Part shown: piece by piece, positions 694 to 60,351 of the stretch
How positions within the stretch are numbered: the first letter of the stretch is position 1
How the letters are laid out: every line of letters begins with the position of its first letter
Origin: a virus
Taxonomy: Duplodnaviria; Caudoviricetes
Direction: 5' to 3' (one strand)
IMG/VR virus record: IMGVR_UViG_3300013113_000816
Location: 1,223-65,222 of that record
Length of the DNA: 64,000 bases
Made by a program: the position numbers and the translations under genes
Notes under the pieces: model-generated
What the model saw: only the letters and a program-made list of their open reading frames with translations
What the model was told of the DNA's origin: nothing
Database searches by the model: none

Positions 694-1002
694 ATGGAAG
701 ACTTCAATTTAAGAAAATACTTAAAAGAAAATAAGCTAGTAAAAGAAGACTCTAGAATGTCCACTTTCAAACCGGGTGATATGTATTCGGCTAATTTTGA
801 TTACAAAGGTATGTTAGATTATTTAAGGAACATAGATATGGAAACAGCGGATGTGGAAGAGCTAGAAAAGGTGCATACGTCTTTAGTAGATGTTAATTAT
901 CATGCAGAAGCAAGCGCGTTGTCGTTCTTCATTGATGCTTTAAAAGACCATGACCCAGCTATTCAAGGCTATTATAAGGAGTTAATAAAAACAATAGGAT
1001 AA
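694..1002 (+). CDS. small protein with MxxFNLRKYLxEN leader (putative internal head protein)
   Basis: N-terminus MEDFNLRKYLKENKLVKE resembles the leaders of 36690 and 41767. Confidence 0.75.
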   Translation: MEDFNLRKYLKENKLVKEDSRMSTFKPGDMYSANFDYKGMLDYLRNIDMETADVEELEKVHTSLVDVNYHAEASALSFFIDALKDHDPAIQGYYKELIKTIG

Positions 1003-1104
1003 AAAATCTCTCAATATAGCTGCTTTTTCATAATACTCTTTTTTAACAGCAAATTTTAACATATCCCTTAAAATATCTTCGGTAAGAACTATTTTATCTC
1101 TCAT
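982..1104 (-). CDS. cassette 10: 40-aa protein with UVR (UvrB/C)-like motif
   Basis: Manual translation MRDKIVLTEDILRDMLKFAVKKEYYEKAAILRDFLSYCFY; ATG lies within the 19-nt repeat. Confidence 0.6.
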   Translation of the reverse strand: MRDKIVLTEDILRDMLKFAVKKEYYEKAAILRDFLSYCFY

Positions 1105-1270
1105 CTTTGTTTTGGTTTAAGTACTCTTTCTCTTTTTCTTCATACCATTCTTTATACTCATCTGTACCATTATACATCACCTCCCCTGTATGTAGTTCTA
1201 CAAAGAACCCCATTCCAAAGCTGTGCCCATAATCTTTAATGAATTGTTTGATATAATCTTGTTTACTCAT
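1094..1270 (-). CDS. cassette 9: 58-aa hypothetical protein
   Basis: Manual translation MSKQDYIKQFIKDYGHSFGMG...EYLNQNKDER; ATG lies within the repeat. Confidence 0.7.
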   Translation of the reverse strand: MSKQDYIKQFIKDYGHSFGMGFFVELHTGEVMYNGTDEYKEWYEEKEKEYLNQNKDER

Positions 1271-1448
1271 CTTTGTTTTGGTTTAATAGTAAAAAGGTTT
1301 TATCATTATCAGTTAATTCACTTCTTAATCTAGGAATACCAGCTTTATCATGTTGTTCTTCTGGTGTCCATTTATTCATTCTATAATCATAATTCTTACT
1401 ATGGAATATAATAGACCTTTCTCTCTCAGTTAATTCTTCTTCACTCAT
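1263..1448 (-). CDS. cassette 8: 61-aa hypothetical protein
   Basis: ORF track; starts in a repeat and ends LNQNKDE by reading through the next repeat. Confidence 0.7.
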   Translation of the reverse strand: MSEEELTERERSIIFHSKNYDYRMNKWTPEEQHDKAGIPRLRSELTDNDKTFLLLNQNKDE

Positions 1449-1729
1449 CTTTGTTTTGGTTTATTTATTTCATCTATCACTTTATAAAATTCTTTTTCCG
1501 CCTTTTCCAATCTTTTTAAATGTATTTTATATTCATCTTTATCTATCAACTTAGGGTTAATACATTCCACTCTACTTTCACCTTTTATAGGTACGAAATA
1601 GGATAAATGTTCATCCTTATCAGAACTAATTTTTTTTACTACTTCTTCTATAAAAGTTGGTATCTCAGTGTTAATCAAATTACCGGTGTCTATATAATGC
1701 ACTAAAATTAATTTATCTTTATTCATCAT
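1445..1729 (-). CDS. cassette 7: 94-aa hypothetical protein
   Basis: ORF track; ends KPKQR at the TGA of the next repeat (ATGA overlap). Confidence 0.75.
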   Translation of the reverse strand: MMNKDKLILVHYIDTGNLINTEIPTFIEEVVKKISSDKDEHLSYFVPIKGESRVECINPKLIDKDEYKIHLKRLEKAEKEFYKVIDEINKPKQR

Positions 1730-1931
1730 CTTTGTTTTGGTTTAATTTATGGTGTAACATATTTCTTAATTTATTCACCTCTGTCATTTTTACTCTCCCA
1801 AAATCTTCACAATAGTAATTCTCTTTAACACTCATCCCATTATCAGCTTGGGTTTTCAATTGAGTCCAATAATCATATATTAAATCTACTAATTCAGATT
1901 TGTCTAATTGGTTTAATTCTTCTTTACTCAT
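1719..1931 (-). CDS. cassette 6: 70-aa hypothetical protein
   Basis: ORF track; ends LNQNKDDE. Confidence 0.7.
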   Translation of the reverse strand: MSKEELNQLDKSELVDLIYDYWTQLKTQADNGMSVKENYYCEDFGRVKMTEVNKLRNMLHHKLNQNKDDE

Positions 1932-2017
1932 CTTTGTTTTGGTTTAATTATTTCTATAATAACAATTAATGTTAAATTAATACAAGTTATTAATAATAAT
2001 ATCTCAGTTAGACTCAT
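1928..2017 (-). CDS. cassette 5: 29-aa hydrophobic peptide
   Basis: Manual translation MSLTEILLLITCINLTLIVIIEIIKPKQR, running exactly from one repeat to the next. Confidence 0.6.
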   Translation of the reverse strand: MSLTEILLLITCINLTLIVIIEIIKPKQR

Positions 2018-2029
2018 CTTTGTTTTGGT

Positions 2030-2311
2030 TTAATTCTTTAAGAGATTAACAAATCTATAACAATGAGCAAAATAATCCCTTCCAGTATGAGAATTAACCT
2101 CATCAGTTCTGTTTAACAATACATTTAAAAACAATGCCGATAAATGATGATAATATTTTCTAGCATAATATTCATCATCACCATCAAATTTAAGTTGTTC
2201 AATCAATTCTATGTTACTATATTTTTTACCATTGGAAAACTCATACACCAACTTATCAACTAGTTTGTTGCCTTTGTCCAAATAATCATATTCTTTTTCT
2301 CTAGTTTTCAT
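2030..2311 (-). CDS. cassette 4: 93-aa hypothetical protein
   Basis: ORF track; the stop is the TAA at the start of the next repeat. Confidence 0.75.
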   Translation of the reverse strand: MKTREKEYDYLDKGNKLVDKLVYEFSNGKKYSNIELIEQLKFDGDDEYYARKYYHHLSALFLNVLLNRTDEVNSHTGRDYFAHCYRFVNLLKN

Positions 2312-2462
2312 CTTCTTTTGGTTTTAAGTTATCAGATAGTATTTTTTGTATATCCTTGTCCATAGATAATTCATACATAATATCTATTTCTTTATCTGTT
2401 GGGTTAGGTAATTTAAGCAATAACCCATATAACTTTTTCTTAGCTTCAATTATTTCTCTCAT
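2301..2462 (-). CDS. cassette 3: 53-aa hypothetical protein
   Basis: Manual translation MREIIEAKKKLYGLLLKLPNPTDKEIDIMYELSMDKDIQKILSDNLKPKEDEN. Confidence 0.65.
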   Translation of the reverse strand: MREIIEAKKKLYGLLLKLPNPTDKEIDIMYELSMDKDIQKILSDNLKPKEDEN

Positions 2463-2481
2463 CTTTGTTTTGGTTTATTTT

Positions 2482-2586
2482 TCATATTATAATTAATGTA
2501 TATATTATTACAGAACAAGCAATTAATGTTCCTATAATATGTAACCCCTTCTGTAACTTATTTAATTTATTCCAATCCTCTATCAT
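2482..2586 (-). CDS. cassette 2: 34-aa membrane peptide
   Basis: Manual translation MIEDWNKLNKLQKGLHIIGTLIACSVIIYTLIII. Confidence 0.6.
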   Translation of the reverse strand: MIEDWNKLNKLQKGLHIIGTLIACSVIIYTLIII

Positions 2587-2598
2587 CTTTGTTTTGTT

Positions 2599-2715
2599 TT
2601 ATAGAACAGCACTTAAAACACTAGCTATTATTCCTATAATAATGAATAACCAAGTTAATTGTTCATGTGATTGTTCTGATTCTTTTTTTACTTGTGTTTT
2701 TGTTTTAAACTTCAT
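2599..2715 (-). CDS. cassette 1: 38-aa membrane peptide
   Basis: Manual translation MKFKTKTQVKKESEQSHEQLTWLFIIIGIIASVLSAVL; the stop is the TAA of the next repeat. Confidence 0.6.
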   Translation of the reverse strand: MKFKTKTQVKKESEQSHEQLTWLFIIIGIIASVLSAVL

Positions 2716-2730
2716 CTTTGTTTTGGCGTC

Positions 2731-2759
2731 AATATACGAAAGAAATATGGGATTTCCAA
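2731..2759 (-). promoter_or_regulatory. TTGG-N17-CGTATATT promoter driving the cassette array
   Basis: Minus strand reads TTGG aaatcccatatttcttt CGTATATT gacg CCAAAACAAAGATG, leading straight into the first repeat. Confidence 0.7.
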
Positions 2760-2792
2760 GTTATTCCCAAAAAAACGTATATACGTAAGAAA

Positions 2793-2825
2793 TTGGTTAC
2801 CTGAAGGGCCTTTCGTATATTTATA
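2793..2825 (+). promoter_or_regulatory. TTGG-N17-CGTATATT / TATTTATA promoter for the MKKSEL cluster
   Basis: TTGG at 2793-2796, CGTATATTTATA at 2814-2825; divergent from the array promoter. Confidence 0.65.
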
Positions 2826-2839
2826 ATAAATTATATTCA

Positions 2840-3067
2840 ATGAAAAAATCAGAACTAAGGAAAATTATCAAAGAGGAAATTTTGAAAGAATCACTTCAAT
2901 TTACCCCGGAGGAGAAAAAAGAAGGCCAACAAATGGAAATGAAAGTAAATGTTCTATCTACCATAGATGAATTAAACCAGTTTCTGAATGGTAATGTAAC
3001 CGCTGAGGGATTGAAAGATGCTTTAGAAAGTATGATTTATAAACTAAATAGATTAAATTATAAATAA
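2840..3067 (+). CDS. MKKSEL-leader small protein 1 (putative internal head protein)
   Basis: MKKSELRKIIKEEILKE leader followed by a unique body. Confidence 0.8.
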   Translation: MKKSELRKIIKEEILKESLQFTPEEKKEGQQMEMKVNVLSTIDELNQFLNGNVTAEGLKDALESMIYKLNRLNYK

Positions 3068-3312
3068 TGAAAAAATCAGAATTAAGAAAATTAATTAAAG
3101 AGGAATTAAAATCTGTAAATGAAGGAATTGAAAATAAAATTCCCGGAATGAGAGATTTCTTATTATTTAAATCCATTATGGATACTCGAACTATAAAACG
3201 TGCTGATGATGAAGATCAACGTAGATGGGCTGAGGTTACTGAGGAATTAGATGATACCTTAACGCGTTGGATGGATTTGTTGTTAGAATTAGATAAAATA
3301 TACCCATCATGA
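3067..3312 (+). CDS. MKKSEL-leader small protein 2
   Basis: MKKSELRKLIKEELKSVNE; TAATG coupling to the previous gene. Confidence 0.8.
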   Translation: MKKSELRKLIKEELKSVNEGIENKIPGMRDFLLFKSIMDTRTIKRADDEDQRRWAEVTEELDDTLTRWMDLLLELDKIYPS

Positions 3313-3530
3313 AAAGATCACAACTAAGACAAATAATCAAAGAAGAAATCTCAAAAGAATTAAAGGAAGGCGCTTTAATGGACCAGGGTGGTTGGGATTA
3401 TAACTTAATGGACCAGATAGAGGATAAAGTTGAGGAATTAAACTCAATAATTGGGAAATATGATAATGAGGAGATTATTAATTTAATAAATGAAATTATT
3501 AGAGATCTTGAACAGCTGAAAAATAAATAA
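3309..3530 (+). CDS. MKKSEL-leader small protein 3
   Basis: MKRSQLRQIIKEEISKELKE; ATGA coupling. Confidence 0.8.
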   Translation: MKRSQLRQIIKEEISKELKEGALMDQGGWDYNLMDQIEDKVEELNSIIGKYDNEEIINLINEIIRDLEQLKNK

Positions 3531-3805
3531 TGAAAAAATCTGAATTAAAACGTATTATCAAAGAAGAAATTTCCAAGGTATTAAAAGAAAATACTATGGA
3601 AATAAAACCCGGAATTAACCTAAAAGGGAATGATGGTAACTTATATACAGTCCTAAAAGCGGGTAATCCTCAAACCCCACACCTCATTAACAATGTAGTT
3701 GCATTAATGAGATTTAATGATGATGAAATTGTTTATTTCCCTCAAGATTTCGGTAGATATTTAGAAATAGACCAATTTTGGGATCATTTTGAACAAACTA
3801 GATAA
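3530..3805 (+). CDS. MKKSEL-leader small protein 4
   Basis: MKKSELKRIIKEEISKVLKE. Confidence 0.8.
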   Translation: MKKSELKRIIKEEISKVLKENTMEIKPGINLKGNDGNLYTVLKAGNPQTPHLINNVVALMRFNDDEIVYFPQDFGRYLEIDQFWDHFEQTR

Positions 3806-3807
3806 TT

Positions 3808-4128
3808 ATGAAAAAATCACAACTAAGAAAAATCATTAGAGAAGAACTTAAAGGAGCACTAAATGAAGGTATTAACCCTTTAAAACATCATTTCTTAAAT
3901 TTACAATTAGATCTTAGACAAGAACTTATTAATAAATTAAAGGGTATGGATACCCAAGCATATATTGCAACTATTGAAAAATTGATTAATGAAGAGGGTT
4001 GGAATATTGGAAATCCTGAGGATGGTAGAGAGGTGTATTTATATATCCAAGGGATGGATGATCAAAAAGTTGAGGCTGCATTAGAAAGTGAAGCCCTTAT
4101 AAGAGGATACGGTACACATATTAGATAA
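3808..4128 (+). CDS. MKKSEL-leader small protein 5
   Basis: MKKSQLRKIIREELKGALNE. Confidence 0.8.
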   Translation: MKKSQLRKIIREELKGALNEGINPLKHHFLNLQLDLRQELINKLKGMDTQAYIATIEKLINEEGWNIGNPEDGREVYLYIQGMDDQKVEAALESEALIRGYGTHIR

Positions 4129-4136
4129 AATAAATT

Positions 4137-4448
4137 ATGAAAAGATCACAACTAAGGAAAATCATCAAAGAAGAACTTAGTAAATCTATTGTTGAAAATG
4201 AACAGTGGAGTGCAGGTGATGTAAGTGAAATTATGAGGCAATTATTGTTAACTCAAAAAACATTGAGAAATGGTGCTTCTCATATGGAGAGATTAATTGA
4301 AGTATTAGGTAAGTATGTTAATAAACCCCAAGGAGATAAATTAGCAGGTATGGTTCCTGATAACTACCAGGTAATTGATATTCTTAATAAAATGGAGAAT
4401 TTAAATAAAGGTCTTCATGCTATGTTCCCACATTTAAATAAAAAATGA
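4137..4448 (+). CDS. MKKSEL-leader small protein 6
   Basis: MKRSQLRKIIKEELSKSIVENE. Confidence 0.8.
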   Translation: MKRSQLRKIIKEELSKSIVENEQWSAGDVSEIMRQLLLTQKTLRNGASHMERLIEVLGKYVNKPQGDKLAGMVPDNYQVIDILNKMENLNKGLHAMFPHLNKK

Positions 4449-4621: not shown

Positions 4622-4715
4622 TCCCGAATATCTGTCGATTTATCATGCTTATCCCAAGATACTTTGGAATTAGTAAAGTTCCTTAGTATATTATCCATAT
4701 TTATAACAAATAATT

Positions 4716-6287
4716 ATGGAAACAAATTCAAAAAAATACAGCTTTTACACTTTAATAATAATCCTTTTAGCAATGTTTATTGGTGGGTATCAAACTTGCG
4801 CCCAACCAACAGTAACCCTCATGCCTGTTGATGGGAATTGGTATACTTGGACTGTTGATGATGGAATCTTATATGATGATGGGGATGTAGGTGGAAATTA
4901 TACTAATAATGGTTTAGGAGCATTAACAATATATCCTACAGACCAAACCAGTGATAAAATTTATTTAAGATTTGTTGAATTTAGAGTTGAAAACCATTCA
5001 TCTTGTAATTACGATTATTTAGAAGTTTATGATGGAGATGATTTTACTACGTTAATTGGTAAATATTGTGGTACAGATTTACCAGATGTTGTTCAATCAA
5101 CACATCCAACAGGAGCCGTTACATTATTATGGTCTTCAGACTTTTCAGTTACAGATGCAGGATTTAAAATAGATGTTAGTGTAATAGATCCATTATGGAC
5201 TATTGAATTGGGAGATAGAAATTCTCAATCAACAGACGGCAGAGTACCATCATATGGTTATTATGATTATTCATGGTCTGGTTTAATGTGGGGTCAAGCA
5301 GATATGGGAGTTCCTATTATAATAGAGAGCATTTCATTTGATGTGGTAAATGATATTGATTTAACTATGAACAATCAAAAAATATATTTAGCACATACCT
5401 CTGCTAATATGTTTCCTGATGGAATAGAACCCACAGATGGTAGTGGCCCATGGACAGATTGGACATTGGTGTATGCGGGAGATATTAAATGGGTTCAAGG
5501 ATGGAATACTATTACATTAGATGCTCCTTTTGTTTATAATGGGTTAGAAGGATTATTAGTTAAAACTGTAAATGAAGATGGTTCATGGGTAAGTGCATAC
5601 CCTCAATATAGATACACTTCTAGAGCAAATACAGTTGTATATAATTATGCTGATGGAGCATTTCCAGGACCATCAGGGTTTAGAAATTCTTTAAGACCTA
5701 ATATGAGGTTTGGATTTGGAGGGGGTGGAGCTTTACCTATTGTTTTAATGTCGTTTACAGGAGAAGTTAATGATAATAATAATGTTAATTTAAATTGGGT
5801 TGTTGCATCTCAAGTAAATAATGATTATTTCACTATTGAAAGAAGTTTAGATTGTAGGGAATGGGAAGTTGTTGATAATATTAATGGAGCAGGAAATAAT
5901 AATATGGAAATGAGTTATAATTTAGTAGACCATAATCCCCATCTTGGATTATCTTATTATAGATTATCACAAACTGATTATGATGGGAAATTTGAAGTAT
6001 TCAACCCAATATCAGTAGAAGTTTCAAATGAACACACTGTTGGTTTACATATAGTCCCTAATCCAGCAATTGATAATATACATTTAGAATTAGTTTATCC
6101 AAATGACCACCCAATAAACCATGATGTAAAAATATATAATTCAAAAGGTGAAGAAGTGTATAAAATGTTTTATATAGGTGAATTAGAAGAATTTAATATA
6201 AACATACAGAAATTTGTCCCCGGATATTATATAGTAAGATCAAAAAGTGATAATTTAAATGGTGAAGGTAAATTTATAAAGAAATAA
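4716..6287 (+). CDS. secreted protein: signal peptide, CUB domain and T9SS type-A-like C-terminal region
   Basis: Hydrophobic N-terminus; CUB-like CNYDYLEVYDG..IGKYCG..WSSDFSVTDAGF; ALPIVLMSF..NNDYFTIERS..SYYRLSQTDYDG; C-terminal IVPNPA..PGYYIV..KFIKK typical of Por secretion tails. Confidence 0.8.
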   Translation: METNSKKYSFYTLIIILLAMFIGGYQTCAQPTVTLMPVDGNWYTWTVDDGILYDDGDVGGNYTNNGLGALTIYPTDQTSDKIYLRFVEFRVENHSSCNYDYLEVYDGDDFTTLIGKYCGTDLPDVVQSTHPTGAVTLLWSSDFSVTDAGFKIDVSVIDPLWTIELGDRNSQSTDGRVPSYGYYDYSWSGLMWGQADMGVPIIIESISFDVVNDIDLTMNNQKIYLAHTSANMFPDGIEPTDGSGPWTDWTLVYAGDIKWVQGWNTITLDAPFVYNGLEGLLVKTVNEDGSWVSAYPQYRYTSRANTVVYNYADGAFPGPSGFRNSLRPNMRFGFGGGGALPIVLMSFTGEVNDNNNVNLNWVVASQVNNDYFTIERSLDCREWEVVDNINGAGNNNMEMSYNLVDHNPHLGLSYYRLSQTDYDGKFEVFNPISVEVSNEHTVGLHIVPNPAIDNIHLELVYPNDHPINHDVKIYNSKGEEVYKMFYIGELEEFNINIQKFVPGYYIVRSKSDNLNGEGKFIKK

Positions 6288-6667
6288 TGGAAATAAAAGC
6301 CTTAGGGAATAAACCCTATGTTAAATTAGATAAAGAAAATTGTACCCTAACTATTAAAGGTAAATCATACCCTGAACACCCCTCAACTTTTTATAATCCT
6401 ATCCTAGAAGAATTGGAAAAATGCTCAGAATATATGGAAGGGGCGGTTATAACCATTGACTTAGCATTAGAAATTATGAATTCTGTTTCTACTAAATATA
6501 TTTACCATATGATTAAAAAAATAGATGGGTCTGCTAGAAATCTTGTTATCAATTGGTATTATGAAGAAGATGATGATGATATGAAAGAAGAGGGTTCTTT
6601 ATTTAGAAATGCTTTCCCTAATTCAAAGTTTAACATAATTTTTGTAGAGGATTTGATGGAGATATGA
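6287..6667 (+). CDS. DUF1987 / SiaC-like protein
   Basis: PYVKLD..LTIKGKSYPE..FYNPI..NSVSTK..INWYYEEDDDDMKEEG pattern. Confidence 0.7.
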   Translation: MEIKALGNKPYVKLDKENCTLTIKGKSYPEHPSTFYNPILEELEKCSEYMEGAVITIDLALEIMNSVSTKYIYHMIKKIDGSARNLVINWYYEEDDDDMKEEGSLFRNAFPNSKFNIIFVEDLMEI

Positions 6668-7175: not shown

Positions 7176-7204
7176 TTGGAGTCCCAGGAAATCTTTCGTA
7201 TATT
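7176..7204 (+). promoter_or_regulatory. TTGG-N17-CGTATATT promoter
   Basis: TTGG at 7176-7179 and CGTATATT at 7197-7204, upstream of the DUF932 gene. Confidence 0.65.
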
Positions 7205-30421: not shown

Positions 30422-31216
30422 ATGATAAAATTAAGAGATTTGCTTTTAGAAGTACAAGGTAAACCCAAAGCCCTTATCTTAGCTGGAGCTCCTGGAGCGG
30501 GTAAAGGGTATATTTTAAGGGGTTTAGATTTAGGAGGATTAAAAACCTTTAATATAGATGATACCTTCATAGATTTATTAAGACAATCAAATGTATCATT
30601 AGATTTAAAATCCCATGGACCTGAAGAAAGAAGTGCTGCTGCTAAAGCAATGGCTGTTGCTTCTCGAAAACATAAAAAAGAATTAATCCCAAATGCAATA
30701 GCAAATCAAGAACCATTTATTTTAGATGGAACAGCAGCTTCACAAAAAAACACTTTAAAATTAAAGGGCGAATTAGAAGCAGCAGGTTATGATGTTTTTA
30801 TGTTGTATGTTTATACTGATTTAGAAAGATCTTTAAAACAAAATCAGAATAGATTTGAAAAATCAGGTGGTAAAGATAGGAGTTTACAACCCGCAATTGT
30901 AATGTCTACATGGAATTCAGTTACTAAAAATTTCGAACCTTATCAACAAGCATTTGGTAAAAATTTCGTCTCAGTAGCCAATACAGGAGAGGCAATGACT
31001 GACTTAGAACAAATAATAACAAAGTATTTAGACCCATTTAAACCACAAAATACTAAACCTAAAACAGAAAAAGAAAAAATACGTTCAAGAGCTAAAAAAG
31101 AAGAAACAAACAAACAAATACAAGATTTATTAAATTCAAACCACTTACAGAATATAATCAAGTCATCAGTATCAAAAGACGAAGCTCAAACACAAATATC
31201 TAACTTTTTAAAATGA
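30422..31216 (+). CDS. P-loop kinase (AAA_33 / zeta / PNK-like) with MIKLRDLLLE leader
   Basis: Walker A GAPGAGKG, NIDD, ILDGT, lid-like ERSLKQNQNR. Confidence 0.75.
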   Translation: MIKLRDLLLEVQGKPKALILAGAPGAGKGYILRGLDLGGLKTFNIDDTFIDLLRQSNVSLDLKSHGPEERSAAAKAMAVASRKHKKELIPNAIANQEPFILDGTAASQKNTLKLKGELEAAGYDVFMLYVYTDLERSLKQNQNRFEKSGGKDRSLQPAIVMSTWNSVTKNFEPYQQAFGKNFVSVANTGEAMTDLEQIITKYLDPFKPQNTKPKTEKEKIRSRAKKEETNKQIQDLLNSNHLQNIIKSSVSKDEAQTQISNFLK

Positions 31217-34200
31217 ACGGACTAAGTGAATTTTTAATAGACAGTATGGTTAAAGAACAAACCACTGCTTTATTTGGTGGGGGTTTTAAACCACCTACTA
31301 AGGGGCATTTAGAAGTTGTCTTACAAGGTTTAAGTGAAAATCCTAAAGTAAATAAGCTTATTATAGCTGTAGGTAAAAAAAATAGAGGGGGAGTAACCCA
31401 AGACCAATCAGTTCAAATATGGGAAGTTTATAAAAGACTTATACCTGTTGAAACTGAAATCATTCCTGTAATATCACCATTTAATTTTTATAAAAAATTC
31501 CTAAAAGAAAATAAAGAAGATAATGTTTATGTTTTTATAGGTGCAAGAAAAAATAATAAAAAAGATATTATTGATATAAAGGAAAGATCCAAATTTGTAA
31601 AAAGATATAGTGATAATGTAATCCCAAAAGGAGTATTAACTGAAAACATTGATAGTGGTACTAATTCAAGAAAACTATTTAAAGAAAATTTAGAAAAATT
31701 TTATGATACTTTACCAATAGATTTAACTGAAGATGAAAAATTCCAAGTCCATCTTATTTTAGAAGGTGAGAAATTACAAAAGTATGTAGATAAAGTTAAA
31801 GGGGGTTTTAAAAAATTTATCCAATCTTTAAAACAAGAAAAACAAGAAACTAAAGATGCCTTTAAATTATTAGTCCAATCTGTAAAAGGTAAAAAACAAT
31901 TATCTAAAGAAGAAAAAAAAGAAATAGGTAATCAAATGAAAGATGTTCTTAAAGTAGCAGGGTTTACAGCTGCTTCTGTATTACCTGGAGGGGTTATATA
32001 CTTAATGTTATCAAGAATACCTGCCTTAAAAAAATCATTAACACCTTCTGCTTTTATAAATGAAGCTTCTGAAGATAAAATTTTATATGCTTTTGATTTA
32101 GATGACACTTTAATCACTTCAAAATCAAATGTTATAGTTACTAACCCTGAACAAGGAACATTTAAATTAACACCTGCTGAATATGCCTTATATGAACCAG
32201 GACCAAATGATGAATTAGATTTTTCAGAATTTAAATATTTAAAAAGTCCAAAAGTAATTAAAGACAATTTTGAATTATTTTCCAAAATATTAGAAAAATC
32301 ATCCCAATTATCAGGTGCCAAAACAATTATATTAACCGCTAGACAACCTGAAGTAGCTACTGATGTAGAGGCATTTCTAGAAAAAAAGAATTTACCTCAA
32401 ATAACTTTACATGCTGTAGGTAGTTCTGACCCAAATGAAAAATTAGAAGTAATAAAAGATTACATTAATCAAGGATTTAATAAAATTAGATTTTATGATG
32501 ATTCTCCTAAAAATGTAGAATCTATAAGATCTATAGATATACCTGGAGTGGATGTTATTTCTAAATTAGTTAAACATGGTCCATTAGGTGAAGTTTTATT
32601 AAGAGAAGCAATGGTAAATGAAGAAAAATTAGATCTTAATTTACCTGAAGATATTCTTCATCTTTATAGAGCATTTATAAAAAATGGGAAAAAATTATAT
32701 GTTGTTGGAGGTGCAGTAAGAGATGCTCTTTTAGGTAAGGACCCTAAAGATTATGACTTAGCTACAGATGCAACTCCAGATGAAGTACTAGCAATAGCTG
32801 AAAAAGAAGGATTAAAAACTTTAGAAATAGGAAAACAATTTGGTGTTGTAATGGTAAATGGTCATGAAATAGCTACTTTTAGAAAAGATATAGGCAAAGG
32901 TAGAAGACCAGATTCAGTAGAATACACTGATATTGAAGGTGATGTTAATAGAAGAGATTTAACTATTAATGCCTTATTTTATGATATAGATAAGGGTGAA
33001 GTAGTTGATTTAGTAGGTGGGGTTCAAGATTTAAAAGATAGAAAAATTAGAACTGTAGGTAAAGCTTCTGAGCGATTTGAAGAAGATGCCTTACGTAAAT
33101 TAAGAGCATTAAGATTTCATGGTCAAACAGGAGGAGAATTAGGTAAAGAAACATTACAAGCTTTAAAAGATAACCCATCACTTGAAGGTGTAAGTGGAGA
33201 AAGAATTAGAGATGAATTCCTTAAAGGACTCAAAAAAGCTATATCAACTAAAAAATATTTAGAAACAGCAGATGGATTGGGTTATTTAAATCAAATCCTT
33301 CCTAATTTAACAATTACAACACCTTACATAGATGAGGAAGATTATATTGTTTTACTTGCTTACCTTTTAAAACAAAATTCACCATCTCAAATTGTTAAAC
33401 AATTAAATCAATTAAAATACTCTGGGGAAGAAGCTAAACAAATCAGTTTCTTAGCTTCATTAGCTAATTTTACCCCAAATCAAATACAATCATATAAAAA
33501 ATTCCAAAAAATATCAGGTGTAACTGATGAACAAATAAATAAAATAGGAAATTTAGTAGGTAAAGATTTTACTAAATTTTTAAATTTTGAATTAAGTGTA
33601 AGGGGCAATGAGGCACCCTCAGGTTTAAAAGGACCAGAAATAGGAGATTGGGTAAATAAACAAGAAATTTCAAATTATCAATCATTAAATGAGGATAATG
33701 ACCCATTCGGTTTGGTGCGATTAGTAAATGAAGTAATAGGAGAGGATGAGTTTGATTATACCCCACATATAGATTCTTTAAATGGTTATATGGAAGATAA
33801 GGGAATGAATGTAACTCCTCTACCTAGTTTAGTATTTATACATGACGATGTAGATAACGCGCAAGATGTTATGGGCAAAACAGCGTTTTACAACCCAAAT
33901 AAACGCGAAATAGTTTTATACACGTTATACCGCCACCCCAAAGATGTTCTGCGTTCATATGCGCATGAGATGATTCACCATATCCAAAACTTAGAAGATA
34001 GATTAGGTAACATAACTACAACAGATACAAGAGAAGATGACCATTTAACAGATATAGAAAGGGAAGCCTATACAGATGGAAATCTTGCATTTAGAAAATG
34101 GACAGAAACATTAACTGAGAGTCAAAAGTCTACTCTATCTCTTAAAGATAGTTTTGAACCACAAAAAGAAAATTATAAATTTGATTGCAACTGTGGTTGA
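31213..34200 (+). CDS. multidomain protein: cytidylyltransferase-like, LETM1-like, HAD, class II tRNA nucleotidyltransferase and HExxH peptidase-like domains
   Basis: FGGGFKPPTKGH; KDVLK..VLPGG; FDLDDTL..LTAR..FYDDS; VGGAVRD..DYDLATD..RRDLTINAL..EDALR..SGERIRDE; AHEMIHH..EREAY. Confidence 0.85.
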   Translation: MNGLSEFLIDSMVKEQTTALFGGGFKPPTKGHLEVVLQGLSENPKVNKLIIAVGKKNRGGVTQDQSVQIWEVYKRLIPVETEIIPVISPFNFYKKFLKENKEDNVYVFIGARKNNKKDIIDIKERSKFVKRYSDNVIPKGVLTENIDSGTNSRKLFKENLEKFYDTLPIDLTEDEKFQVHLILEGEKLQKYVDKVKGGFKKFIQSLKQEKQETKDAFKLLVQSVKGKKQLSKEEKKEIGNQMKDVLKVAGFTAASVLPGGVIYLMLSRIPALKKSLTPSAFINEASEDKILYAFDLDDTLITSKSNVIVTNPEQGTFKLTPAEYALYEPGPNDELDFSEFKYLKSPKVIKDNFELFSKILEKSSQLSGAKTIILTARQPEVATDVEAFLEKKNLPQITLHAVGSSDPNEKLEVIKDYINQGFNKIRFYDDSPKNVESIRSIDIPGVDVISKLVKHGPLGEVLLREAMVNEEKLDLNLPEDILHLYRAFIKNGKKLYVVGGAVRDALLGKDPKDYDLATDATPDEVLAIAEKEGLKTLEIGKQFGVVMVNGHEIATFRKDIGKGRRPDSVEYTDIEGDVNRRDLTINALFYDIDKGEVVDLVGGVQDLKDRKIRTVGKASERFEEDALRKLRALRFHGQTGGELGKETLQALKDNPSLEGVSGERIRDEFLKGLKKAISTKKYLETADGLGYLNQILPNLTITTPYIDEEDYIVLLAYLLKQNSPSQIVKQLNQLKYSGEEAKQISFLASLANFTPNQIQSYKKFQKISGVTDEQINKIGNLVGKDFTKFLNFELSVRGNEAPSGLKGPEIGDWVNKQEISNYQSLNEDNDPFGLVRLVNEVIGEDEFDYTPHIDSLNGYMEDKGMNVTPLPSLVFIHDDVDNAQDVMGKTAFYNPNKREIVLYTLYRHPKDVLRSYAHEMIHHIQNLEDRLGNITTTDTREDDHLTDIEREAYTDGNLAFRKWTETLTESQKSTLSLKDSFEPQKENYKFDCNCG

Positions 34201-43027: not shown

Positions 43028-43060
43028 GTGGCCCATCCTTTGGATGGGTCACTTTTTTTT
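43028..43060 (+). terminator. intrinsic terminator overlapping a TTGG-N17-CGTATATT promoter
   Basis: GTGGCCCATCC-TTT-GGATGGGTCAC followed by T8; TTGG at 43040 and CGTATATT at 43061. Confidence 0.8.
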
Positions 43061-43090
43061 CGTATATTAACACCAAAACTAAATTAGTAA

Positions 43091-44721: not shown

Positions 44722-45261
44722 ATGAAAATAGGTTTTTGTGGAACAATGAGTGTAGGTAAAACTACATTAGTAAATGAATTAAAAAAATTTCCTGAATTTA
44801 AAGATTATACTTTTAGAACAGAACGTTCTAAATATTTAAGAGATTTAGGTATTCCTTTAAATACTGATTCAACATTAAATGGACAAACAGTGTTTTTAGC
44901 TGAAAGAGCAGCTGAATTACTTCAAGAAAATATAATAACTGATAGAACTGTTATTGATGTTATGGCTTTCACTAGTTTAGCAGATTCAATTGACTATCCA
45001 GAATTAGATGATTTTGAAAACCTTGCTTCAAGGTTTATTGAAGATTATGATTATATATTTTATGTATCACCTGAAGGGGTTGACATTGAAGATAATGGAG
45101 TTAGAGAAACAGATGCTAAATATAGAGATTTAGTAGACTTTAGTATAAACAAATTTTTAGATAGATATAGTTGGAAAATAAAAAATCTAATTAAATTAAA
45201 AGGCACTACTGAAGAACGTATAGAATCATTTAAAGAGGCACTTCTCCCCCAGTATTTATAA
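44722..45261 (+). CDS. AAA_28 / NadR-type P-loop nucleotide kinase
   Basis: GTMSVGKTT, TDRTVID, EDNGVR. Confidence 0.8.
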   Translation: MKIGFCGTMSVGKTTLVNELKKFPEFKDYTFRTERSKYLRDLGIPLNTDSTLNGQTVFLAERAAELLQENIITDRTVIDVMAFTSLADSIDYPELDDFENLASRFIEDYDYIFYVSPEGVDIEDNGVRETDAKYRDLVDFSINKFLDRYSWKIKNLIKLKGTTEERIESFKEALLPQYL

Positions 45262-57052: not shown

Positions 57053-57089
57053 GTTTTAATTTAATTTTTTAGTATTTATAATAAAAACT

Positions 57090-60326: not shown

Positions 60327-60351
60327 TATTTATAATAAAAAAAGAAATTAA

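Follow-up and report, generated by a model that had tools for sequence, protein, structure and literature searches.

What does a short repeat do when it supplies the start codon of ten genes that are unrelated to one another? The question is raised by the left end of a DNA stretch of 64,000 nucleotides (nt) from an uncultured marine phage, hereafter the window, which corresponds to bases 1223-65222 of a 65,222-nt IMG/VR record (IMGVR_UViG_3300013113_000816) with a CheckV completeness of 41%. There, on the minus strand, ten copies of a 19-nt repeat, which we call joints, supply the starts of ten small open reading frames (ORFs), the cassettes c1 to c10. An earlier note on this DNA had taken the array for an integron-like or CRISPR-like expression system. 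In our analysis the joint appears instead as a translation restart site that doubles as the crossover point for cassette exchange, a reading to which we give a probability of about 0.68.

Anatomy of the joint and of the cassettes

The joint TAAACCAAAACAAAGATGA is present on the minus strand in seven exact copies, to which are added one copy with 1 mismatch and one with 3 mismatches (Table 1). This total of nine compares with 0.16 expected and was reached in none of 100 shuffles. The tenth copy, TAAAACCAAAAGAAGATGA, is an indel variant. A search of the whole 65,222-nt record for a 17-mer of the joint, with at most 1 mismatch, returned eight copies, all within the array, against none for the control. 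The ATGs of the ten cassettes, which are the upper coordinates given in Table 1, are spaced 86-294 nt apart and open ORFs of 29 to 94 amino acids (aa). No two of these ORFs are alike, and those of the nine joints within 3 mismatches form nine separate families in an all-against-all blastp comparison. The joint also closes the gene upstream, in a manner that varies from one cassette to the next: c1 and c4 terminate at the TAA of the joint; c5 and c7 terminate at the ATGA overlap, with a tail in ..KPKQR; c6, c8 and c9 run through the joint and end in ..NQNKD(D)E(R); c3 runs through the variant joint 4 and ends in ..KPKEDEN; c2 stops 7 nt before the joint TAA. The copies (seven exact and three variant), the supply of the ATG, the unrelated ORFs and these modes of termination agree with the description in the earlier note in every detail that could be checked.

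To place the array among other sequences, IMG/VR was scanned for the 17-mer, which was found in at least 118 stretches, many of them with 3-16 copies; when 3 mismatches were allowed, the stretches listed yielded 339 joints in 119 sequences. The layout of the joint is a TAA, a 12-nt A-rich leader and an ATGA, usually followed by GTAA, GTGA or GTAG, over 19-24 nt in all. Positions -15 to +3 are conserved, with a weaker extension as far as +8 (ATGAGTAAA), in a profile of the 339 copies that is biased by the way in which the loci were found. In the IMG/VR stretches listed, the exact 17-mer provides the start of an ORF that reaches at least 25 aa in 88% of the 72 copies at single-copy loci and in 96% of the 136 copies at multi-copy loci, compared with 0% and 3% for the other two frames.

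The stops are equally regular. Of 220 pairs of consecutive joints, 149 have an upstream ORF that stops no more than 60 nt from the following ATG, and all three frames are represented: 28 stops fall on the TAA at -15, 38 on the aTGA, 66 in the third frame (47 of them at +5), 6 elsewhere in the joint and 11 shortly upstream. Stops in all three frames within -15 to +11 are carried by 69% of the 221 exact joints and by 52% of the 114 variants, against 2% of 66 ordinary genes of the window. The two bases that follow ATGAGT are AA (86 of the 221 exact joints), GA (13) or AG (8), each of which gives a third-frame stop; this suggests that conservation at this place concerns the stop and not a particular residue. 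The c7 family provides an illustration, since its tail reads ..NKPKQR here and ..NQNKDEN in another locus (L267), corresponding to the two read-through frames of the joint, and its relatives in phages without the joint have unrelated C-terminal ends. Judging from these translations, the tails ..KPKQR and ..NQNKDE are by-products of the joint. The proposal that the repeat acts as a frame-independent stop-plus-start junction is thus supported both by the stops of the upstream ORFs and by the three-frame stop counts.

Joints of other sequence were also met. Another phage group (L269, L270, L271 and L272, plus strand) has its own joint, AATAGAAAGTTATGA(A/G)TAA, with 3-5 copies per locus and, as read by eye, three-frame stops and the same stop-start-stop layout. 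A further repeated gene-start joint, AAATATAGTTATGGCA, occurs twice in G006, a syntenic relative of the window (L263, 1017 and 1614).

The sequence context of the joint was then compared with that of other starts. A Shine-Dalgarno-like word precedes 8 of the window's 66 plus-strand genes, a proportion no higher than the 12.5% seen in intragenic controls, and the regions upstream of the 66 genes are A-rich, with 5-12% G. A study on Flavobacterium johnsoniae describes adenines at -3, -6, -12 and -13 as raising initiation (PMC6847099). The joint carries A at these four positions and has no Shine-Dalgarno sequence. Local folding of the putative operon RNA gives a predicted unpaired probability of 0.75 for the ten joints, above that of all 19-nt windows (0.56) and of 40 other AUGs (0.52). 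The adenine positions and the low predicted structure fit an initiation region.

By their sequences the cassettes look like real genes. The c7 family is found at 21 loci of large phages (L267-L287), with 11 invariant columns and the motif RVECINPK, and c8 has a relative at 87.6% nt identity (L026) whose conserved half shows, as counted by eye, 4 synonymous differences and 1 non-synonymous one. The earlier idea that translation would follow for whatever DNA is put between two repeats finds no support in these two cases. The confident AlphaFold model of c7 (pLDDT 85.5) is of the beta-alpha-beta-beta-alpha type; when it was compared with PDB and BFVD, no fold reached E <= 0.001, and a complex I subunit and DinI came nearest (E 0.02-0.07). 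No Pfam family was above cut-off for seven cassettes (c3, c4 and c6-c10), c10 giving a weak UVR-motif match below it. PHROGs returned only weak matches (E 0.005-0.007) for two of nine cassettes, a protein atlas search with the cassettes gave no usable match, and a homologous-protein search found one relative of c4.

Table 1. Joints, cassettes and control region of the array, in the order of translation (positions in the window)
Feature	Position	Strand	Description
control region	2731..2839	-	divergent; 109 nt; only intergenic gap ahead of the array and c1
joint 1	2712..2730	-	variant GACGCCAAAACAAAGATGA, 3 mismatches; without TAA; no gene upstream
c1	2599..2715	-	38 aa; hydrophobic C-terminal stretch; stop is the TAA of joint 2; unchanged in L251
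joint 2	2583..2601	-	1 mismatch; point of divergence of the 99.7%-identical contig L251
c2	2482..2586	-	34 aa, hydrophobic; also in the 210-kb phage record G002
joint 3	2459..2477	-	exact
c3	2301..2462	-	53 aa; tail KPKEDEN through joint 4
joint 4	2308..2326	-	indel variant TAAAACCAAAAGAAGATGA; similar variants in G002 and L251
c4	2030..2311	-	93 aa; stop is the TAA of joint 5; also found, beside other neighbours, in L266 and one contig of run X5
joint 5	2014..2032	-	exact
c5	1928..2017	-	29 aa, hydrophobic; ATGA overlap stop (..KPKQR)
joint 6	1928..1946	-	exact
c6	1719..1931	-	70 aa; tail ..LNQNKDDE
joint 7	1726..1744	-	exact
c7	1445..1729	-	94 aa; conserved phage family, motif RVECINPK; joint-encoded tail ..NKPKQR
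joint 8	1445..1463	-	exact
c8	1263..1448	-	61 aa; tail ..LNQNKDE; 87.6% nt relative in L026
joint 9	1267..1285	-	exact
c9	1094..1270	-	58 aa; tail ..LNQNKDER
joint 10	1101..1119	-	exact
c10	982..1104	-	40 aa; last in the array; overlap with the convergent ORF 694-1002 (plus strand), at the end of that ORF

Cassette exchange and spread of the joint among phages

Related sequences differ by whole cassettes, and the differences begin and end at joints. A contig from another metagenome (L251) is 99.69% identical to the record over 9,974 nt and has the control region and c1 in common with it; from joint 2 onward it carries three different cassettes, up to the contig end. The cassette c2 is matched in a 210-kb phage record (G002) at 93% nt identity over 2459-2601, that is from joint to joint, with flanking joints that differ in variant; the terminases of the two phages are only about 35% identical despite this match. 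The cassette c4 is 98.7% identical over 2013-2324 to a copy in L266 that has different neighbours on both sides; there it lies among other cassettes, behind genes that, judged by eye, may be replication genes. Both c4 and c5 are found unchanged, with unlike flanks, in contigs of other studies (for c5, in run X5 and in the RNA-library run X19). In the syntenic relative G006 (about 70% nt identity) the two flanks of the array are kept, and the 1.9 kb between them holds different genes with only two joints.

When matches of at least 85% were collected over all loci, 44% of the 351 internal homology ends lay within 5 nt of a joint, compared with 3% for random places; in this set of loci a breakpoint was present at 132 of 392 joints and at 51 of the 1,602 remaining gene starts. 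The joint variant moves with the downstream cassette at joint 2 of L251 and does not do so for c4 in L266; crossovers therefore occur at varying points within the joint, as in homologous exchange. The suggestion that cassettes are gained, lost and exchanged at the repeat is upheld by L251, by the c2 and c4 matches and by the breakpoint counts. Joins that skip from one joint to another were also seen in run contigs; their sides are of 21-32 nt and derive from the repeat itself, and they were rejected as deletions or circles.

The joint is spread among distant phages. Five large joint-bearing records (125-380 kb) encode terminases only 27-36% identical to that of the window, and the 311 joint ORFs of at least 20 aa fall into 212 families, of which 156 are singletons. 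In G002, 18 of the 19 copies are located within 46-58 kb, where almost every gene has a joint or a variant of it. A RecA-family match below cut-off, in an ORF of 337-384 aa, hints at UvsX-like recombinases in three of the five records. Cellular genomes, among the 80 matches listed, have one copy each, in unrelated taxa, and no array. Because of these record-wide, cellular-genome and terminase comparisons, together with the cultured phages considered below, the joint is, on sequence grounds, neither a genome-wide motif, nor a host motif, nor bound to one phage lineage.

Other searches returned little. A blastn comparison of two joint-containing stretches with 50,697 phage records gave only partial matches at chance level, a 25-nt pattern from the array head had no match in metagenome contigs, and a search for closer relatives with the left-flank ORF found only N-terminal look-alikes. 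Strings of the joint, two of them of 13-14 nt, led to no related paper in the literature searched (supplementary files being outside its scope), in which the joint is new by its sequence.

Proposed mechanism and rival explanations

A scan of 10 large window proteins identified a T4-type terminase together with T4-type portal, major head and baseplate wedge proteins. The identity of the terminase is 59.4% with its counterpart in Flavobacterium phage immuto and 51.7% with the one in a Microcystis phage. A 523-aa protein (4716-6287, plus strand) combines a CUB domain with a C-terminal sorting domain of the type IX secretion system (31 bits for a Pfam cut-off of 27); this sorting domain is also present in three of the five other joint-bearing records and in none of 14 control genomes. 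Because of the terminase match and the sorting domains together, the host is probably a member of the Bacteroidota with a type IX secretion system, most likely of the marine Flavobacteriia.

In the mechanism that we propose, the joint would lie within the mRNA of a single leftward operon of small accessory genes, expressed early, in a hyperplastic region of a T4-like phage whose probable host, a marine member of the Bacteroidota, would have ribosomes that work without Shine-Dalgarno sites. In the RNA, the joint would close the upstream frame, no matter which of the three is in use, some 15 nt or less from the following AUG and would present this AUG in an A-rich context favouring initiation in such hosts, each cassette being translated by restart or coupling. 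At the DNA level, an identical joint is found in unrelated cassettes and in distant phages of what would be the same host group. Since it is common to them letter for letter, it would serve as a short homology, through which ordinary recombination by phage enzymes, and not site-specific recombination, could gain, lose or swap whole genes in register.

A wider interpretation can be offered only tentatively, and we consider it rather less probable than its contrary. Selection could have made the joint the "plug standard" of a gene pool held in common, with a layout resulting from frequent rejoining in arbitrary frames among unrelated Bacteroidota phages. Different pools would keep their own joint "dialects" with the same layout, and translation restart combined with short homology would permit exchange free of a recombinase.

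Several observations weigh against a restart joint that doubles as crossover point. Among 97 homologous cassette pairs, upstream neighbours are the same in 15 of the 25 that are comparable and downstream neighbours in 15 of 34, so that much of the cassette order is inherited. The comparisons were made on metagenome contigs assembled from short reads; as a repeat of 19-31 nt could produce chimeras in such assemblies, some of the "exchanges" may be assembly errors. The arrays themselves are considered real because they are identical in independent metagenomes (L025, L048 and L085; L060 and L072) and because of their intrinsic three-frame layout. The sequencing-run data are assembled contigs, those of RNA libraries included, and as such cannot show transcript ends or translation, nor do the RNA-library contigs demonstrate transcription. 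The joint is absent from immuto, the closest cultured relative (2 matches at 3 mismatches, against 3 for the control), and from Tenacibaculum phage PTm1 (0 matches); it is therefore not required for growth on Flavobacteriia. Lastly, the published A-rich rule leaves unexplained the fixed C at -5, -10 and -11 and the fixed G at -1, the latter base being found at -1 in only 5% of the other genes of the phage. Since these positions fall outside the rule, something else may read the joint sequence.

This last point leads to the rival that survives best, even if we regard it as unlikely. The joint would be mainly the recognition site of a dedicated factor (a phage-encoded translational repressor or activator such as T4 RegA, an RNA endonuclease that would divide the operon mRNA into units, or a small RNA) giving the cassettes a common timing, and shuffling would be a by-product. 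The C and G positions in question are kept in 86-96% of the 339 copies and the A-rich rule needs none of them; the motif is confined to one gene class and to one region per genome; and for the analogous start-associated sequence of cluster K mycobacteriophages a host or phage factor has been proposed (PMC3203893). The search for a candidate reader, however, found none, the RegA family (PF01818) being matched in 0 of 5 records in a search without positive control. As the terminases of the joint-bearing phages are only 27-36% identical, a reader encoded by the phage would also have to be common to such distant phages. Moreover, the joints of other phage groups differ in sequence and have the same stop-start-stop layout, which favours an arbitrary shared linker over a single conserved reader or a universal signal.

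The question of transcription was considered from the control region, which is identical in L251 and 82.6% conserved in G006, a relative otherwise about 70% alike. It contains a sigma-70-like match, TTGGAA-17-TATATT, with 9 of 12 consensus positions; such matches number 18 in the region for 17.2 expected. A promoter function of this gap is inferred. The Bacteroidota promoter pattern TTTG..TAnnTTTG is not enriched and is absent near the array. The gap also holds a perfect 12-nt inverted pair, CTTTCGTATATT, at 2731-2742 (minus) and 2810-2821 (plus). The same word is found at 7193-7204 (plus) and, with one mismatch, at 661-672 and 43057-43068 (both plus). It stands 15-40 nt 5' of the first gene of several units and may be a promoter element of another class, although its 18 copies at 2 mismatches, for 13.9 expected, are not above chance. 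A second word, TATTTATAA, has 25 copies in the window, 20 of them on the plus strand, for 7.65 expected and a count reached in none of 100 shuffles. It occurs for example at 2818-2826, 4698-4706, 45253-45261, 57073-57081 and 60327-60335, never in the minus-strand array, and inspection of upstream sequences placed it often just 5' of plus-strand structural genes. By analogy it is a candidate late promoter, resembling the T4 late-promoter element TATAAATA.

Could each joint itself be a promoter, or the place where a phage-specific RNA polymerase or sigma factor starts transcription, so that every cassette would have its own transcript with a very short leader? Short exact repeats 5' of genes are typical of phage-specific promoters, and the window does contain other repeated upstream words, TATTTATAA and CTTTCGTATATT. 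Nevertheless, the ATG is fixed inside the joint and three-frame stops are part of it, no promoter-like match falls inside a joint, and the upstream ORFs enter or cross it, so that no room is left for a terminator. An RNA-library contig spans both joints of c5, an indication that is weak since contigs are not single transcripts and DNA carry-over is possible. We consider such a promoter very unlikely.

A site-specific system, in which a recombinase would recognise the repeat and insert or excise cassettes as circles, is what the integron-like model of the earlier note implied. Unrelated promoterless cassettes behind a single non-coding gap, moving as repeat-bounded units, are indeed as such a system would have them. 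The tyrosine integrase family PF00589 was matched, however, neither in the present record (0 of 1, 41% complete) nor in the other joint-bearing records (0 of 5, one of them rated 100% complete), and was found in 14 of 14 control genomes. Five inverted pairs were found in 900-2850, none of them at a joint, and no joint forms a hairpin. The absence of integrase in these six records and of inverted repeats at the joints, together with crossover points that vary inside the joint, is the reason why we do not regard the array as an integron; besides, a repeat that contains a start codon and stops in three frames suggests a role in translation. A recombinase acting on the joint is thus highly improbable. 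Finally, an ordinary genome-wide initiation context of host or phage, which the earlier note had itself named as an alternative, or a leftover of the tandem duplication of one gene start, has hardly any chance: the joint adenines do match the Bacteroidia rule, but 0 of 66 other window genes have the joint, the ten ORFs are unrelated, G002 concentrates 18 of its 19 copies within 12 kb of 210 kb, and cellular genomes have single copies in unrelated taxa among the 80 matches listed.

Surroundings of the array and likeness to known systems

The neighbourhood of the array has features of its own. At 190-700 the window has a non-coding region of about 500 nt in which there are GC-rich stretches and repeats of units containing GTAC, and which is conserved at 72-76% in G006; tRNA and Rfam scans of the left 5 kb gave no match, and the region could be an origin or another cis element. 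On the opposite side, at 2840-4448 (plus strand), six tandem small genes have near-identical starts, MKKSELRK(I/L)IKEE.., encoded by some 40 nt of similar DNA after which they diverge; this is a second type of shared gene start, coding in this case, next to the array. A SiaC-family protein (100.7 bits; 6287-6667, plus strand) directly follows the protein with the CUB and sorting domains, and a 995-aa protein (31213-34200, plus strand) has tRNA nucleotidyltransferase and polynucleotide-kinase-like parts according to PHROGs.

If the proposed reading is true, large marine phages trade single accessory genes by means of a common connector that secures expression wherever the gene lands, and that needs no promoter, Shine-Dalgarno site or dedicated recombinase. 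This would help to explain the fast turnover of the "ORFan" regions of phages, and would offer a natural test case for the choice of start codons in bacteria that ignore Shine-Dalgarno sites. The joint might also provide a compact scarless linker for building operons in Bacteroidota. Annotation can easily overlook the six to ten real mini-genes of an array, whose C-terminal tails are by-products of the joint.

How does the joint compare with known systems? With integrons the array has in common a row of unrelated promoterless cassettes that stand behind one control region and move as units; it differs from them in having neither integrase nor attC hairpins, and in a repeat that is located at the 5' end of the gene and carries its start codon. 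CRISPR arrays are made of regular repeats and short non-coding spacers of uniform length. Here the intervals range from 86 to 294 nt and each is an ORF that starts inside the repeat, so that the CRISPR-like description cannot be retained; no Cas-like protein was present among the 10 large proteins scanned, in a survey that was not aimed at cas genes. The A-rich, Kozak-like region described for Bacteroidia (PMC6847099) is similar to the joint in its adenines at -3, -6, -12 and -13, the lack of a Shine-Dalgarno sequence, low structure and the absence of another AUG nearby. It is a statistical preference that concerns all genes, whereas the joint is an exact sequence, with fixed C and G positions, of one class of phage genes.

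Two phage elements are closer. The promoter early stem-loop elements (PeSLs) of the T4-type phages RB49, phi1, PST and nt-1 consist of a sigma-70-like early promoter and a stem-loop terminator, and excised mini-circles have been shown for them (PMC2839356, PMC4122927). PeSLs and joints are both short conserved elements that separate small non-essential ORFs in the hyperplastic regions of T4-type genomes, and in both the end points of indels or replacements between close relatives fall in the element and are explained by homologous recombination. For the joint, such end points are seen in L251 and in the breakpoint counts (132/392 joints against 51/1,602 starts), and the hyperplastic nature of the region in the T4-type proteins and in a content which, between conserved flanks, is wholly unlike that of G006. 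Unlike a PeSL, the joint has no promoter or stem, contains a start codon and three-frame stops, would act, if at all, in translation, and is common to phages with terminases only 27-36% identical.

The start-associated sequence (SAS) of cluster K mycobacteriophages is a 13-bp element, GGGATAGGAGCCC, with a Shine-Dalgarno core, situated 3-7 bp before the start in copies scattered over half a genome (PMC3203893). As described there, the SAS and its extended form (ESAS) are like the joint asymmetric and in one orientation, and they directly precede the starts of non-structural genes that belong to different families. Like it, they are conserved from one subgroup to another, are not found in host genomes and are suspected of a role in initiation, with the upstream stop sometimes inside. 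The joint differs by the lack of a Shine-Dalgarno sequence, by a fixed spacing that includes the ATG, by its tight tandem arrays of mini-genes and by marking points of exchange. The joint lacks the defining features of the PeSL, namely promoter and stem-loop, and those of the SAS, namely its sequence and its Shine-Dalgarno core; it works like the PeSL in recombination and resembles the SAS in position.

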